Origin: a virus
Lineage: Duplodnaviria > Heunggongvirae > Uroviricota > Caudoviricetes
Strand: one strand, 5' to 3'
DNA: 39,097 nt
Virus record (IMG/VR): IMGVR_UViG_2609460219_000010
Coordinates: 1-39,097 of that record
In this document: piece after piece, positions 24,539 to 35,098 of the stretch
Position numbering within the stretch: the first letter of the stretch is position 1
Layout of the letters: each line of letters opens with the position of its first letter
Position numbers and translations under genes: made by a program
Notes under the pieces: model-generated
What the model saw: only the letters and a program-made list of their open reading frames with translations
Told to the model about the DNA's origin: nothing
Database searches by the model: none

Positions 24539-24614
24539 TGGTGCTGGTTAACGGACTTGAACCGCTACCCATTCGCTTACAAGGCGACCGCTCTACCATT
24601 GGAGCTAAACCAGC
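24539..24614 (-). tRNA. tRNA-like gene, manual fold gives anticodon UGU (Thr)
   Basis: Minus-strand 76 nt: perfect 7-bp acceptor stem GCTGGTT/AACCAGC, D-arm GCTC/GAGC, T-arm with TTCAAGT loop, 3' CCA encoded; anticodon loop CTTGTAA. Confidence 0.55.
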
Positions 24615-24619
24615 ATATT

Positions 24620-24694
24620 TGGCGGGACAGCGTGGACTCGAACCACGATAAGAAGGTTAACAGCCTTCCGTAATGACCTTTATACGACTGACCC
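24620..24694 (-). tRNA. tRNA-like gene, manual fold gives anticodon GUU (Asn)
   Basis: Minus-strand 75 nt: T-arm CGTGG-TTCGAGT-CCACG, anticodon arm GAAGG-CTGTTAA-CCTTC, CCA encoded; acceptor stem has one T-T mismatch. Confidence 0.5.
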
Positions 24695-24785: not shown

Positions 24786-25331
24786 CTATGCTACATGTTT
24801 AATTTTCTCTACACGTTTCCGGTTTTTAAACGCACTATCCAGAACCGGGTAAATCATAAACAACGAGGCATTGAGGATTTCGTCAACTTCCCGTCGACAG
24901 GTTGCGAGCGATGGTTTTTGAATGCGCCCGCCGCCCCGGCATAACATCTTGCGAGGTCTTGCGACGCGATAATAGTAAGATGCAATGGCGTGCTTGGAAG
25001 AGCCGTGGGCGTAGTAGCTGAGGAGGATGCCAAAGGCTTTCTTGTCAATGTACATGACGGAATCGACGACCTGAGAAATCAACATTCCATCATCATCATT
25101 ACACATTGGCCTTGTCATAACTCTTCCCGGCTCTACGCTCTCCATGAACTTAGCTATTACGCTGCTCATGCGCTTTTCCAGACGACCTGAATAAACCCAT
25201 GCGCCCCACAGTTCAAGCCAGCCATTCAGCCACTCGTGCTGTTCTTTGGTGAGGTTTAGTTCTCTTATGCCCATGCGCCTTCTCCCTTGTGATCTGGAAT
25301 GGTTTTTACTGAGAACGTCATGCAGCCTCAC
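24786..25331 (-). CDS. Q: late-gene antiterminator Q-like protein
   Basis: 181 aa ORF in the Q slot between ninG and the lysis cassette; Cys-containing C-terminal region; assignment mainly positional. Confidence 0.55.
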
Positions 25332-27232: not shown

Positions 27233-27305
27233 GACTTCCCTCTCCCCCAAATAAAAAGGCCTGCGATTACCAGCAGGCCTGTTATTAGCTCAGTGATGTA
27301 GATGG

Positions 27306-28294: not shown

Positions 28295-29310
28295 AGATCC
28301 ACCCCGTAAATCCAGTCAGTGTTTGTCAGGTCGAGTTTTGGTTTTCCGGCTGTCACGCCAGCCTGTTGCTTGTTACGGTTGATTTCGAGCTGGGTCCACT
28401 TGTCGCGGAGTTTGGCCGGACTCAGCACGTTACCGGACCAGAAGTTGTCCTGGCAGGCCCAGCGGAAAAGCACACACATATCGCGGTGGTTACGTCCGTC
28501 ACGTTCACGCATCAGGCGGATATCGTTAGCCCACCCAGCAAAATTCGGTTTTCTGGCTGATGGCGCGATGGTCTTCACCATGTCAAACATCCACTCTGCG
28601 GCGGTCAGGTCTTCTGCTGTCCCCCACTTGCTGCCGCTCTGAATCGCAGCATCCGCTTTCACCACAGGAAGGTCGTTTTCTGGCAGGTCAGAGGATTCGC
28701 CAGAATTCTCGGACGAATAAGGTTTTATATTGTCTTTTGTTAGTTTGTCTTTTGTGTTTACCTGATTCGGGTAAGTGCCTTTACCTGATTTGGGTAAACT
28801 TTTCTTACCTGATTCAGGTAAATTTANCTCTTTCAGGTAAACTTTATTTTTCTTACCTGATTCGGGTAATGTTGACCATTCACTGACCACATTATTAATG
28901 CCTATATTCCGCCCGCTCTGAATAAAAATCCCACGCTTTACCAGAGCACTTTTTGCAGCAGAACACTTGTGCGGCAATATCCCGGTTAATTCGGAAAGTT
29001 GCTCGTTGCTAACCCAATCCAGTTTTTTATTAAAGCCATATGTTTTGCGCATGACAGCCAGAAAGACCAGAAGCTGGTGCTGTGTTAATCCGGCCAGCAT
29101 CACAGCTTCCAGCAACTCATTTGCAATGCGCGTATAACCATCATCGAGATCTGCCACGCGCGGCTCCTTTTGTGCCGCATCCGGCACTGGAAAATTGAAT
29201 ATCTCAGCAGTGTTTGCCATAATTCCTCCCGCAATGAGTGTGTTACGATTTGCACCTGAAAGTCGGTTCTGTTCCCGCAGACCGACTTTCGCCATTTTTG
29301 AACCTGTCAT
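28291..29310 (-). CDS. O: replication initiator O-like protein (hybrid: non-lambda N-terminal domain, lambda-type C-terminal domain)
   Basis: C-terminus ...RWACQDNFWSGNVLSPAKLRDKWTQLEINRNKQQAGVTA.KPKLDLTNTDWIYGVDL recalled as lambda O C-terminus; N-terminal half differs; iterons inside the gene. Confidence 0.8.
   Translation of the reverse strand: MTGSKMAKVGLREQNRLSGANRNTLIAGGIMANTAEIFNFPVPDAAQKEPRVADLDDGYTRIANELLEAVMLAGLTQHQLLVFLAVMRKTYGFNKKLDWVSNEQLSELTGILPHKCSAAKSALVKRGIFIQSGRNIGINNVVSEWSTLPESGKKNKVYLKEXNLPESGKKSLPKSGKGTYPNQVNTKDKLTKDNIKPYSSENSGESSDLPENDLPVVKADAAIQSGSKWGTAEDLTAAEWMFDMVKTIAPSARKPNFAGWANDIRLMRERDGRNHRDMCVLFRWACQDNFWSGNVLSPAKLRDKWTQLEINRNKQQAGVTAGKPKLDLTNTDWIYGVDL
28758..28869. 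repeat. origin iterons (four to five 17-bp repeats TTACCTGATTCGGGTAA) inside O
   Basis: Copies at 28758-28774, 28781-28797, 28805-28821, 28853-28869 plus a degenerate copy around an N near 28827; each internally palindromic; AT-rich tract adjacent. Confidence 0.7.
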
Positions 29311-29852: not shown

Positions 29853-29876
29853 CGCCTTATCAGTTAACGCCGCAGA

Positions 29877-30110
29877 TTAGGCGGCAGAATTACTCGCGTT
29901 AAACAATGGTGCGAGGTCGGGACGAATATCTGCTGGCTTAATCTTTCCACCAGTGGCTGAGACAATTTTCATTACATAGCGGGCATCAATTCCGCCACCG
30001 TGTAGCCAACGCCAAACAGTGGGCTGGGCTACACCGCATAGATCTGCCAGTCGTTTTTGACTACCTGTAATACTGATTGCGAGTTGAATGGTTTGATTTG
30101 TCATTATCAA
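29877..30110 (-). CDS. cro: Cro-like repressor (HTH)
   Basis: 77 aa, HTH-like segment SQKRLADLCGVAQPTVWRW; divergent from cI across a 100-bp operator region. Confidence 0.65.
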   Translation of the reverse strand: MIMTNQTIQLAISITGSQKRLADLCGVAQPTVWRWLHGGGIDARYVMKIVSATGGKIKPADIRPDLAPLFNASNSAA

Positions 30111-30136: not shown

Positions 30137-30165
30137 ATAATAGCAATGCGTATTAACCATGGCAA
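30137..30165 (-). promoter_or_regulatory. candidate PR promoter
   Basis: Minus strand -35 TTGCCA, 17-bp spacer, -10 TATTAT, about 27 nt upstream of cro ATG. Confidence 0.4.
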
Positions 30166-30974: not shown

Positions 30975-31839
30975 ATGGATTGTGACGCTTTACAGGATAT
31001 AAAAATCTCTCTTAGGTATGACGGAAAAGATGCTTTAAATCATGAAATAGATTTGAACTGCCTAGGAGAATCCCTAAAGGGTTTTTCTAAAGTTCTCTCA
31101 ACAGCAGCTTCTTTCTCTGTTACACAAAAATATAGTAAATACATTAATTATCAGGAAGTTAAGGTTTACGCACGCGAAGCAAAAGCTAACTGCTTTACTC
31201 TTGAAGCAGTTCTTAACTTCGCCACTCAGAACCAGTTGTTCTCGGGGATCGCCGCAACTATACTTGGCGCAATACTACAATATATTTTTGCGAGAAATTC
31301 TAACAAGAAAGATGAAATGAAAGCTTTGCAGCAGTCACTTGAAAAGGCCATAGAGGCACTAGGAAACAAGGATGCTGGAACCATTGATAAGTTGATCTCT
31401 TTGATTGACCGAATGGCTGTAGAGCTTCGCCCCTCTGTAAGGCAGGCAGTATCACCTATTGGTAATACTTGCGATCAGATAAGTGTTGCAACAAATGTTG
31501 ACGGCTGCCTTCTAAAAGTTAACGAGAGAGATAAAGCTGAAATTGATAGGCTTGATGATGATGAAGTTCTCGGTCTTCGTGAGTATCGTGCTTTTCTTAC
31601 AGAATTTGATGCACAAAATATGACAGCTAAAATAATTTTAGATGGTGATGACTCNAAAAAAGAGAATCACTGCTGAAATTAGCGATCCAGCTGCAGGAAA
31701 GAAGAATAACCCGTATATTAGAGCTCTTAGTGCATATATATCAACCAAAGGTGATCCATCTGCAGTATTCACTATAACCGCAAAGGCTACTGTTAAAAAA
31801 GGCCAGATAAACAGGTTATTTATTGTAGATGCGAAATGA
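30975..31839 (+). CDS. hypothetical protein in rex position (candidate superinfection-exclusion/defence), frame-disrupted at an A-run
   Basis: AT-rich ORF directly after cI on same strand; predicted single TM segment ([19 protein letters not shown]); frames 30975..31676 and 31642..31839 join if the N at 31655 before AAAAAA is dropped; own terminator follows. Confidence 0.5.
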
Positions 31840-31843
31840 TTTC

Positions 31844-31870
31844 CCCGGCCGTCGTGCCGGGTTTTCTTTT
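31844..31870 (+). terminator. intrinsic terminator after rex-position ORF
   Basis: CCCGGC-CGTCGT-GCCGGG hairpin followed by TTTTCTTTT. Confidence 0.5.
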
Positions 31871-31996
31871 GCCTCCCCTCATCACACACCGTTCAAAAAA
31901 CCACCACAACCCCCGCTTCAGTTATCGCTATGCGATGCAAGTCACAAAATTAATTCCTTTTGCTATCAAACAGTTAATATCAAAATACATCAATCA

Positions 31997-32038
31997 ATAG
32001 CAATAAGTATTGATATCACCAATAGCAATAGCTATTAT
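31997..32038 (+). promoter_or_regulatory. candidate PL promoter with OL operator palindrome
   Basis: TTGATA (32010-32015), 17-bp spacer, TATTAT (32033-32038); palindrome AATAGC-AATA-GCTATT (32020-32035) and second CAATAGCAATA copy upstream. Confidence 0.4.
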
Positions 32039-32111
32039 CACCATGTCGCAACAACACAACGATACGGCAACCACCTGTTTCACCGTTGCGATGACCGCTT
32101 AGATCCGCAGT

Positions 32112-32522
32112 TTGAATTTCAGCAGGCTTCGGGGAGTGCGAGGGGTGAAACGGACGCGTGAACGTCGGTGTGACCAGCTGAAATCAACACAACACTTTAT
32201 ACCTCAGTCGCTTCAACGAGGCGGCTTAGTTATGACAACCGGCGGCCATCCACCGCCTGAATACGCGCAGAAGTCTCTATATGTTCAGCAGCCCAGCTTA
32301 CGGGCAGGAGTTTTTATGGTTCATCAACATTACGGAACGCAGACCGTTAATCGCGGCGCGGTCATGCCAGGAATGCTGGTCAAACACAAAGATGGTACCT
32401 GGACTGCATCAGCTAATTTACGCGGGCGGCTTTATCTGCATCGCGGCATCGAGCGCACTTATACCCGTGATTTGCTCGTAGAAGTTTTTCTCGACGGACG
32501 CGGTAACGGCCTGAATCACTAA
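32112..32522 (+). CDS. hypothetical protein in the N/kil slot (Arg-rich N-terminus if long start is used)
   Basis: 136 aa ORF (alternative start 32232) between candidate PL and gam; N-terminal RLRGVRGVKRTRERR. Confidence 0.35.
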   Translation: MNFSRLRGVRGVKRTRERRCDQLKSTQHFIPQSLQRGGLVMTTGGHPPPEYAQKSLYVQQPSLRAGVFMVHQHYGTQTVNRGAVMPGMLVKHKDGTWTASANLRGRLYLHRGIERTYTRDLLVEVFLDGRGNGLNH

Positions 32523-32598
32523 CCCCCCTTTCCTGTTTTCCTAATCAGCCTGGCATTTCGCGGGCGATATTTTCACAGCCATTTTCAGGAGTTCAGNC

Positions 32599-32895
32599 AT
32601 GAACGCTTATTACATTCAGGATCGTCTTGAGGCTCAGAGCTGGGCGCGTCACTACCAGCAGATCGCCCGTGAAGAGAAAGAGGCAGAACTGGCAGACGAC
32701 ATGGAAAAAGGCCTGCCCCAGCACCTGTTTGAATCGCTATGCATCGATCATTTGCAACGCCACGGGGCCAGCAAAAAAGCTATTACCCGTGCGTTTGATG
32801 ACGATGTTGAGTTTCAGGAGCGCATGGCAGAACACATCCGGTACATGGTTGAAACCATTGCTCACCATCAGGTTGATATTGATTCAGAGGTATAA
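32599..32895 (+). CDS. gam: Gam (RecBCD inhibitor)
   Basis: 98 aa, matches recollection of lambda Gam short form; upstream in-frame sequence resembles long-form N-terminus. Confidence 0.9.
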
Positions 32896-32900
32896 AACGG

Positions 32901-33686
32901 ATGAGTACAGCACTCGCAACGCTGGCAGGGAAGCTGGCTGAACGTGTCGGCATGGATTCTGTCGACCCAGAGGAACTGATCACCACTCTTCGCCAGACGG
33001 CATTTAAAGGTGATGCCAGCGATGCGCAGTTCATCGCATTGTTGATCGTCGCCAACCAGTACGGCCTTAATCCGTGGACGAAAGAAATTTACGCCTTCCC
33101 TGATAAGCAGAACGGCATTGTTCCGGTGGTGGGCGTTGATGGCTGGTCCCGCATCATCAATGAAAACCAGCAGTTTGATGGCATGGACTTTGAGCAGGAC
33201 AATGAATCCTGCACATGCCGGATTTACCGCAAGGACCGTAATCATCCGATCTGCGTTACCGAATGGATGGATGAATGCCGCCGCGAACCATTCAAAACTC
33301 GCGAAGGCAGAGAAATCACGGGGCCGTGGCAGTCGCATCCCAAACGGATGTTACGTCATAAAGCCATGATTCAGTGTGCCCGTCTGGCCTTCGGATTTGC
33401 TGGTATCTATGACAAGGATGAAGCCGAGCGCATTGTCGAAAATACCGCATACACTGCAGAACGTCAGCCGGAACGCGACATCACTCCGGTTAACGATGAA
33501 ACCATGCAGGAGATTAACACTCTGCTGATTGCCCTGGACAAAACATGGGATGACGACTTATTGCCGCTCTGTTCCCAGATATTTCGCCGCGACATTCGCG
33601 CATCGTCAGAACTGACACAGGCCGAAGCAGTGAAAGCTCTTGGATTCCTGAAACAGAAAGCCTCTGAGCAGAAGGTGGCTGCATGA
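32901..33686 (+). CDS. bet: Bet single-strand annealing recombinase
   Basis: 261 aa, near-identical to my recollection of lambda Bet. Confidence 0.95.
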
Positions 33687-34363
33687 CACCGGACATTATC
33701 CTGCAGCGTACCGGGATCGACGTGAGAGCTGTCGAACAGGGGGATGATGCGTGGCACAAATTACGGCTCGGCGTCATCACCGCTTCAGAAGTTCACAACG
33801 TGATAGCAAAGCCCCGCTCAGGAAAGAAGTGGCCTGACATGAAAATGTCCTACTTCCACACCCTGCTGGCTGAGGTTTGCACCGGTGTGGCTCCGGAAGT
33901 TAATGCTAAGGCGCTGGCCTGGGGAAAACAGTACGAGAACGACGCCAGAACCCTGTTTGAATTCACTTCCGGCGTGAATGTTACTGAATCCCCGATCATC
34001 TATCGCGACGAAAGTATGCGCACAGCCTGCTCTCCCGATGGTTTATGCAGTGACTGCAATGGCCTTGAGCTGAAATGCCCGTTTACCTCCAGGGATTTCA
34101 TGAAGTTCCGGCTCGGTGGTTTCGAGGCCATAAAGTCGGCTTACATGGCCCAGGTGCAGTACAGCATGTGGGTGACGCGAAAAGATGCCTGGTACTTTGC
34201 CAACTATGACCCGCGCATGAAGCGTGAAGGCCTGCATTATGTCGTGATTGAGCGGGATGAAAATTACATGGCGAGTTTTGACGAGATGGTGCCGGAGTTC
34301 ATCGAAAAAATGGACGAGGCACTGGCTGAAATTGGTTTTGTATTTGGGGAGCAATGGCGATGA
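33683..34363 (+). CDS. exo: Exo 5'-3' exonuclease
   Basis: 226 aa, near-identical to my recollection of lambda Exo. Confidence 0.95.
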
Positions 34364-34999: not shown

Positions 35000-35098
35000 A
35001 CATGAAAAGCAAAATTATCAGGGAGCTACAGGCTCCTTTTTTTATTATTCGCATTTACCCTCAAGCGTATTAACCAACAATTCAGGGATTAATGAAAG

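Follow-up and report, generated by a model that had tools for sequence, protein, structure and literature searches.

How early left transcription is sustained in a lambdoid prophage without a recognisable N gene is the question raised by the 39,097-nucleotide (nt) stretch analysed here (the window; IMG/VR virus record IMGVR_UViG_2609460219_000010), in which the plus strand corresponds to the "leftward" direction of lambda and the gene order is PL, leader, kil, gam, bet, exo. A first-pass annotation had placed PL, had reported lambda N, cIII and kil to be missing between PL and gam, and had assigned to the gap an open reading frame (ORF) of 136 or 97 residues with an arginine-rich N-terminus, proposing either a divergent N/Nun-like protein or an RNA-based mechanism. 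We find that this ORF is almost certainly a chance in-frame extension of a 68-residue KilR-type division inhibitor, which starts at ATG 32316 and is the only gene between PL and gam. The 270-nt leader ahead of it is modular: a 27-nt start module is followed by a structured RNA cassette (element X), then by a second structured element (P1-P2), and then by kil (Table 1). In lambdoid early operons, X is a candidate for a new class of cis-acting promoter-proximal RNA. For the explanation as a whole, in which kil and the modular leader are joined to an antitermination role for X, we would put the chances slightly below even. The placement of PL held up, as the operator repeat CAATAGCAATnnGTATT found at 31995 and 32020 recurs in OR at 30138 and 30163, a four-copy family common to OL/PL and OR/PR; the PL transcript probably begins near 32045.

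The identity of the gene was established from residues 69-136 of the ORF, which match the NCBIfam model NF008465 "FtsZ inhibitor protein" (E 1.8e-17, model positions 1-70 of 73) and PHROG 294 "Kil" (E 1.3e-37). The NF008465 score of 63 bits falls under the curated cutoff of 92 bits, which indicates a diverged subfamily. In BLASTP comparisons the product is 36% identical to Rac KilR (E 9e-13), with the alignment beginning at residue 1 in both proteins, and 41% identical to phi80 Kil (E 5e-16). An AGGAG sequence precedes ATG 32316, the same layout of a small hairpin and a Shine-Dalgarno sequence also precedes the first gene after P1-P2 in other phages, and PGAP calls a 207-nt kil in all four E. 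coli genomes inspected. The protein thus shares with the KilR-type family full-length homology, a size of about 68-73 residues and an early-left position upstream of recombination genes, as in Rac and phi80, and it has no sequence relation to lambda Kil. Rac KilR inhibits FtsZ and cell division (PMC12482147, PMC5793797), the Rac and phi80 proteins being classed as inhibitors of FtsZ and cell elongation, and by analogy the window protein is a putative inhibitor of the same process. The earlier statement that N, cIII and kil are lacking is accordingly correct for the lambda types, none of which was found between PL and gam, but a kil gene of the KilR type is present.

On the protein side, what is left is a routine annotation: a gene of a known family, preceded by a spurious 5′ extension. 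Database entries for the kil region conflict: some phage records still retain the extension, as a 139-residue "Kil" or a "membrane carboxypeptidase", while others show a 31-residue hypothetical ORF or, in phage Turner, a 93-residue out-of-frame ORF. In Rac, an unrelated small RNA, kilS, lies upstream of kilR where the window has P1-P2. It is annotated in E. coli K-12 (locus L137, 2906-3003), and the intrinsic terminator at its end is some 175 nt away from the downstream kilR; despite its comparable "pre-kil" position, it was rejected as a homologue of the leader, having no sequence relation to X or P1-P2.

The upstream part of the ORF was compared with kil across 38-43 distinct related sequences from phages, E. 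coli genomes and IMG/VR. The kil coding sequence contains 27 polymorphic sites, spread 2/5/20 over the three codon positions, with 20 synonymous and 8 non-synonymous changes and no stops, and its frame is intact in 41 of 43 distinct relatives. The extension (32112-32315), which is equal in length to kil, shows the same number of polymorphic sites, 27, but they are distributed 10/7/10, and 9 changes are synonymous against 19 that are non-synonymous. A C to T change at 32205 creates an in-frame TAG in 16 variants, and indels at 32141, 32183, 32269 and 32306 (+1, +5, -1 and -2 nt) shift the frame, so that the extension is open in only 19 of the 43 relatives and broken by a stop or frameshift in the other 24. 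The arginine-rich stretch lies in this part of the ORF, without a good start. Because the extension accumulates stops and frameshifts without codon-position bias while kil stays intact, the arginine-rich N-terminus does not belong to a protein. The 136/97-residue ORF does exist as first described, with RLRGVRGVKRTRERR in its translation, but its 68 upstream codons are non-coding. The codons for the peptide RLRGVRGVKRTRERR span 32124-32168, made up of the G-rich core of X and hairpin Xb; the peptide's arginine richness arises because a G-rich, CGN-rich RNA motif is being translated, and it is an accidental by-product of the core sequence GGGGAGUGCGAGGGGUGAAACGGACGCGUGAACGUCGG. In an Enterobacter homologue (L162) the same frame reads GSARGEADVRALA followed by a stop, a non-basic peptide.

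Searches for an N system agreed with this. A Pfam scan of the 136-residue ORF gave no match at E ≤0.1. When the 68 residues upstream of kil were compared by tblastn with 50,697 phage records, a cutoff as loose as E 10 returned only near-identical leader DNA or P1-P2 and neither N nor Nun. No boxA was found in the leader at ≤2 mismatches or in the right operon at ≤1 mismatch, there was no boxB-like hairpin pair, and no leader sequence repeats on the PR side; the only small perfect hairpins, at 32241-32257 in the leader and at 29885-29869 after cro, differ in stem and loop. The report that no obvious boxB-type hairpin is present was therefore right as to boxB, but it passed over two conserved structured elements, X and P1-P2. 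X occupies the same early-left position, directly after PL, as the lambda N/nut and HK022 Nun systems, and its translation is arginine-rich; unlike those systems, the window leader has no conserved ORF, boxA, boxB pair or N/Nun homology. A lambda N-family protein was rejected, given the lack of a conserved translated ORF, of N/Nun homology and of nut sites in either early operon.

The RNA-based alternative fared better, though not in its HK022 form. put RNA suppresses downstream terminators in cis and depends on the beta′ zinc-binding domain of RNA polymerase. To represent this class, HK022 putL was taken from the HK022 record, HK022 putR and 13 further distinct putL-like sequences from fetched loci were collected, and a covariance model (R1) was built from ten sequences. 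As positive controls, R1 scored HK022 putL at 93 bits and putR at 50 bits, and it also recovered ten further putL sequences; putL in the control loci ranged over 93-104 bits, and true put RNAs as a whole over 50-104 bits. Across the whole window its best score was 8.7 bits (E 0.9), outside the leader, and no match was obtained in eight window-type loci. An HK022-type put RNA was thus rejected for the leader, and classical put is absent from the window. Rfam searches in gathering and E-value modes returned two tRNAs and noise only, with no match in the leader. N-less lambdoid phages as such are already known, namely HK022 and HK639 (PMC9378689, PMC12315714), and the mechanism of put RNA has been described (PMC9378689, with which our putL numbering agrees). 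A putL-like RNA was also seen in the P22-like Salmonella phage S9-5 (Lederbergvirus; L015, 912-996), and put-like RNAs occur in about 25 of the fetched IMG/VR loci.

Element X holds three invariant single-stranded motifs (GACCGCUUAGA, GCGAGGGGU and GUGACCA) and two hairpins, Xa and Xb. Positions 32086-32192 were searched against the species-representative genomes fetched for P1-P2 (see below), and homologues were found in Enterobacter intestinihominis (L162, 82% identity) and Trabulsiella odontotermitis (L158, 70% identity). Further copies occur in IMG/VR (L166, Trabulsiella; L167, Enterobacter) and in L109 and L170 (metagenome); pattern scans of metagenomes and IMG/VR for more X lineages yielded only L166, L167 and L170. 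All homologues lie just downstream of a PL-type promoter, and the five lineages span Escherichia, Enterobacter, Trabulsiella and a metagenome. At 70-82% identity, both hairpins are kept by compensatory changes and the three single-stranded motifs are invariant. In Xa, the outer pairs alternate between C-G and U-A and between G-C and A-U, and the inner pairs between A-U, C-G and G-C and between G-C and A-U; in Xb, pair 1 is A-U, G-C or G.U, pair 4 is G-C, U-A or G.U, and pair 5 is A-U or G-C. Among seven distinct sequences from the five lineages, two-sided changes were observed in 9 of 15 pairs, and 96.2% of cells were paired vs. 16-44% when partners were slid, with 0 of 500 shuffles reaching the observed values. 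Covariation was checked in a hand alignment as well as in alignment A9, which was model-fitted.

At first, 32073-32195 resembled unique spacer, with no distant BLAST matches and no unusual stability. The start module is 92.6% identical to the sequence after the -10 element in L121 and 81% identical to that in L025, in both of which it is followed by the boxA-like GCTCATTAACAA, a sequence absent from the window. From 32196 onward the window matches a segment of phi80, HK225, HK639, ENT1, KO-TP1 and S9-5 that follows an intrinsic terminator downstream of the N/put region. Since both the start module and the segment from 32196 are shared, what is missing is the cassette that other lambdoids carry between them (boxA/nutL, N and tL1A, or putL), and X stands in its place. 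The same replacement is seen directly in alignment A8, in which HK639, L167 and L109 have identical flanks of about 55 nt on each side: a 5′ flank in the initial transcribed sequence (...CCATCGAAACGAAACATCGAYAGCTGAG.GAAGTTAGCCAGCGGCGAAGTGGAG) and a 3′ flank (TTTACCAGCAGCTCTTTGCGAGGGGCTGACGGTAAAC...) that runs into the first gene. Between them lies the annotated putL-like RNA in HK639, and X in L167 and L109. phi80 has the same 5′ flank followed by its annotated nutL boxA, at the point where its relatives have X inserted. It follows that a single position can be filled by any of three alternative cassettes, nutL, putL or X. The X core begins about 50 nt after the predicted PL start. As a separate observation, several lambdoid PL transcripts open with a small hairpin with an A/C-rich loop, UCGC-AACAACACA-GCGA in L121 and UCGA-AACGAAACA-UCGA in phi80 and HK639, and window positions 32046-32062 are similar (L016, about 1741-1757); it could be a 5′-end stability or pause element.

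X resembles HK022/HK639 put in several respects. Both are structured RNAs of about 75-95 nt with two stem-loops just downstream of PL in N-less lambdoid phages, with no dedicated protein partner nearby, and in L167 and L109 X occupies the putL slot itself. No conserved protein gene accompanies X, and the genes 3′ of it differ in every lineage. In L162, L167, L109, L170 and L158, X lies 600-1900 nt upstream of P1-P2 and kil, with unrelated genes between, and in L162 this interval contains an intrinsic terminator hairpin with a T-run (GGCUGCC-AGGUA-GGCGGCC-UUUUU); HK639, in which put is needed, likewise has a terminator after putL. X differs from put in having no sequence or structure match to it, and in copy number: HK022 has putR in addition to putL, whereas the window has a single X (model R3, 131.7 bits; next best 8.1 bits).

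P1-P2 consists of an irregular hairpin, a linker and a short perfect hairpin. In phi80 its homologue lies between tL1A and the rho-dependent tL1B, and in HK639 the homologue of P2 is annotated as a "terminator"; both regions score 57-67 bits with model R2, which finds one copy in the window (88.5 bits). The P1 set comprised 35 distinct sequences from phages and from Citrobacter, Enterobacter, Leclercia, Kluyvera, Lelliottia, Trabulsiella, Scandinavium and Escherichia genomes. Two-sided changes were observed in 7 of the 15 P1 pairs, and 97.9% of cells were paired vs. 35-49% with slid partners, with 0 of 500 shuffles reaching the observed score; a first MAFFT alignment (A3), which mis-registered shorter stems, was excluded from counting. 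P2 is nearly invariant, a property partly imposed by search patterns that required it. Measured against shuffled sequences, the whole leader and 32046-32200 are unexceptional in thermodynamic stability (z about 0), and P1-P2 alone stands out (z = -2.9). Unlike phi80 and HK639, the window has no intrinsic terminator before P1-P2 and no U-tract after P2, which is followed by UGAAUACGCG, the corresponding tail in HK639 and L162 being AGCAUAUUUU. With no U-tract and no call from a terminator scan, window P2 was rejected as an intrinsic terminator. A kilR-type gene lies ≤2.5 kb downstream of P1-P2 in 87 of the 101 loci with enough downstream sequence. P1-P2 is a separate, widespread leader element of the kil module that more probably controls termination, processing or translation ahead of a toxic kil; it is a second undescribed structured leader, tied to this module across Enterobacteriaceae. 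In L026 and L029 a put RNA directly abuts P1-P2, with no terminator between.

What X does was judged from its position and covariation. In the model that we favour, X on the nascent PL transcript would modify RNA polymerase as it leaves PL, making early-left transcription resistant to termination without a phage protein. X would then have the same function as HK022/HK639 put RNA while sharing neither its sequence nor its fold. Three considerations suggest antitermination: X replaces putL in operons that keep intrinsic terminators before kil and the recombination genes, it has no protein partner, and viable X phages have no other recognisable early antitermination system. On this evidence, that X is a cis-acting signal to polymerase just past PL, needing no phage protein, is a tentative proposal with somewhat less than an even chance. 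The stronger form, in which X defines a new self-sufficient class of processive antiterminator RNA, a third solution beside N/nut and put and exchangeable with the putL cassette, is more tentative again. Several observations weigh against these proposals. The case for a role rests on position and covariation; the covariation comes from five lineages only, those very sequences also supplied the structure, and one alignment was model-fitted. The leader as a whole is no more stable than shuffled sequence. Model R3 found no copy of X in the right operon of the window, although the interval between ren and ninB contains a lambda tR2-like terminator (27280-27257). From X through kil, gam, bet and exo there is no strong intrinsic terminator, the first being at 35020-35038, so an antiterminator is not obviously needed for the X-proximal genes.

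The lack of a right-operon copy and of a terminator between X and exo keeps two other explanations serious. X may be a conserved leader RNA that regulates in another way, by loading or blocking Rho, by affecting stability or processing, or as a target through which a small RNA or a protein adjusts expression of kil and the red genes. Genes of the Rac KilR type are held silent by Rho/NusG-dependent termination (PMC5793797, citing Cardinale 2008), phi80 has the annotated tL1B downstream of its P1-P2 homologue, and the window has a 270-nt untranslated leader with C-rich, G-poor stretches at 32040-32100 and 32160-32300; these fit such a role, as does the terminator-free path from X to kil. We nevertheless regard it as rather unlikely. 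In operons that are otherwise identical and contain intrinsic terminators, X is exchanged exactly for putL and lines up with nutL, which is how replacement of one antitermination signal by another is expected to look, and in the five loci named above X and kil are separated by unrelated genes. Alternatively, 32073-32195 could be functionless spacer left by loss of a nutL-N-tL1A or put cassette, with the terminator lost together with N and the conservation reflecting recent ancestry. The start module common to boxA-containing PL transcripts on one side, the post-tL1A segment on the other, the 96-99% identity of window-type copies to one another, the unexceptional fold and the lack of a strong terminator before 35020 are all compatible with a scar of this kind. 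Its probability is low, because homologues in other genera keep the hairpins by compensation together with the three invariant motifs, because X is a self-contained cassette in a different operon context, and because about 12% of sites are polymorphic in 32079-32195 vs. roughly 29% of kil third codon positions.

The two remaining alternatives invoke translation of the leader, and both are less probable than either of these. In one, ATG 32232 would start a regulatory leader peptide, MTTGGHPPP, whose polyproline stall would make termination control ahead of kil depend on translation. In >100 loci this AUG and the 8 codons after it are nearly invariant, and a variant in S9-5 has a frame-preserving 3-nt deletion. 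However, indels of -3 and -2 nt in the linker all keep P2, and the -2 forms (L165, L144) turn the peptide into MRRRPSTA, which points to constraint on the RNA and not on a peptide. Neither sequence nor frame is conserved after PPP, the ORF ranging from 16 residues up to a fusion with the next gene; the AUG and a GAG(G) sequence are buried in P1; and the PPP codons form the 3′ arm of P2, whose invariance is in part a product of the search pattern. We consider a leader peptide very improbable. The least probable of all is the arginine-rich N/Nun-like protein of the first-pass annotation, made either as a 136-residue fusion of an arginine-rich motif to Kil or as a 20-31-residue peptide from TTG 32112 or GTG 32145. 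A GGGGAG/GAGGG purine run precedes GTG 32145, which is ATG in 6 of 40 distinct relatives, so that a start is kept there, and some depositors annotate the long ORF or the 31-residue ORF. The translated KRTRERR resembles arginine-rich motifs such as that of N. Set against this, the extension shows the broken frames and the excess of non-synonymous changes described above, the 1-nt insertion at 32141 and the 5-nt insertion at 32183 shift the frame around or downstream of GTG 32145, the L162 frame is non-basic and ends in a stop, and the searches gave neither N/Nun homology nor a boxA or boxB, nor any site in the right operon to match.

The setting gives these questions some reach. Between 31844 and gam, the window shows 90-99% identity to phages that have been isolated, namely Perceval, 4A7, 1W, 3W and the PhiR series (genus Bievrevirus), which carry the same N-less leader, and this segment was found at ≥80% coverage in 2023 of 5426 complete E. 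coli genomes (about 37%). These Bievrevirus-like lambdoids of E. coli are thus very common and functional with neither N/nut nor put. Should the new-class reading of X be true, an antiterminator RNA would be carried by prophages in more than one third of sequenced E. coli genomes. Were RNA polymerase modified by X, phages would have just two classes of antiterminator RNA that work without a protein, and X would offer a tractable comparison for the structure of put with RNA polymerase and could explain the timing of kil and the red genes; if X has no such effect, how early transcription passes terminators without N or put becomes the question. No description of X or P1-P2 was found in Rfam or the searchable literature; King 2011, which reportedly describes the HK639 RNAs, including the M3-like RNA, may mention X-like sequences.

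Table 1. Coordinates of features in the window, grouped by region.
Feature	Position	Strand	Description
Intrinsic terminator	31844-31869	+	Stem CCCGGC-CGTCGT-GCCGGG, then TTTTCTTTT; ends cI-distal cargo gene (DUF7946/7947), upstream of OL/PL
OL operators	31995-32011, 32020-36	+	Repeats CAATAGCAATnnGTATT
PL promoter	32010-32038	+	TTGATA at 32010, 17-nt spacer, TATTAT 32033-38; promoter scan 10/12 matches
PL transcript start module	32046-32072	+	First 27 nt, TCGCAACAACACAACGATACGGCAACC; common to other lambdoid PL transcripts
Element X	32094-32185	+	Conserved non-coding structured RNA cassette, roughly 95 nt
X 5′ motif	5′ of Xa	+	GACCGCUUAGA
X hairpin Xa	32105-32132	+	Loop AAUUUCAG
X G-rich motif	Between Xa and Xb	+	GAGUGCGAGGGGUGAA
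X hairpin Xb	32150-32169	+	With G.G mismatch
X final motif	After Xb	+	GUGUGACCAGCUGAAA
Spurious in-frame 5′ extension of kil	32112-32315 (TTG 32112 or ATG 32232)	+	Not coding, comparative test
P1-P2 leader element	32198-32258	+	P1 hairpin, CAACC linker, P2 hairpin
P1	32198-32234	+	Long irregular 15-base-pair hairpin; at its base UAUA pairs with UAUG, burying AUG 32232
P2	32241-32257	+	GGCGG-CCAUCCA-CCGCC
Small hairpin and kil Shine-Dalgarno	32291-32310	+	GCCC-AGCUUAC-GGGC, AGGAG; read from sequence
kil	32316-32522 (stop included)	+	68-residue KilR-type (Rac/phi80) Kil; NF008465, PHROG 294, comparative data
gam	32599-32895	+	Pfam Gam PF06064, E 3e-65; next left-operon gene
gam, bet, exo starts	32599, 32901, 33683	+	Block spans 32599-34363
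S24/helix-turn-helix repressor	30159-30908		Gene map
YdaS-type cro	30110-29877	-	
tR2-like intrinsic terminator	27257-27280	-	AGGCCTGCTGGTAATCGCAGGCCTTTTTATTT; strong; between ren and ninB, upstream of Q-like gene 24786-25331

The right early operon runs on the minus strand from cro through a YdaT/CII-like gene, O and P to ren, and in the window neither N nor put, X or any M3-like element was detected there. The M3-like RNA of HK639, a non-coding RNA feature of the right early operon, lies after a cII-like gene in a phage with the same YdaS/YdaT-type cro-cII pair (L168, 2611-2670), and close copies occur in L054, L159, L041, L154, L080, L144 and L081; it was rejected as a relative of X, since the two are dissimilar and the window lacks a copy of it. 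Between cro and ydaT (29853-29885) the window has a 24-nt gap and a hairpin, GCCGC-CUAAUCU-GCGGC, that overlaps the end of cro. In relatives of other immunity (L006, about 1777-1845), the interval that separates cro from the YdaT/CII-like gene contains a perfect boxA (CGCTCTTTAACAA), and no boxB is obvious. At the point of the tR2-like terminator, Perceval carries a 4-kb insert encoding EmrE, a YbcK recombinase and an opposite-strand hydrolase.

Upstream of the left operon, homology with the PL module of relatives starts at the 31844-31869 terminator. The slot between cI and OL/PL, corresponding to the position of rexAB (window 30975-31839; L004, 2137-3000; also L005, L007, L001 and L002), holds cargo that varies per relative and looks like a defence or moron hotspot. 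In the window the cargo is DUF7946 plus DUF7947, with a weak match to PADLOC PDC-S42 (E 1.5e-4), and in E. coli S1 it is a single 287-residue ORF; other relatives have a HipA-family kinase with DUF3037, a SIR2-family protein or an ASCH-domain protein. Of the ambiguous bases (n) in the window, the one at 31655 coincides with the apparent split between DUF7946 and DUF7947, and the one at 32598 lies just 5′ of the gam ATG. Inside the O gene, 28753-28874 contains four to five direct repeats of about 23 nt (TTTACCTGATTCGGGTAA...) that look like lambda-type origin iterons, and two tRNA genes lie on the minus strand at 24542-24694, between the Q-like gene and the lysis genes.

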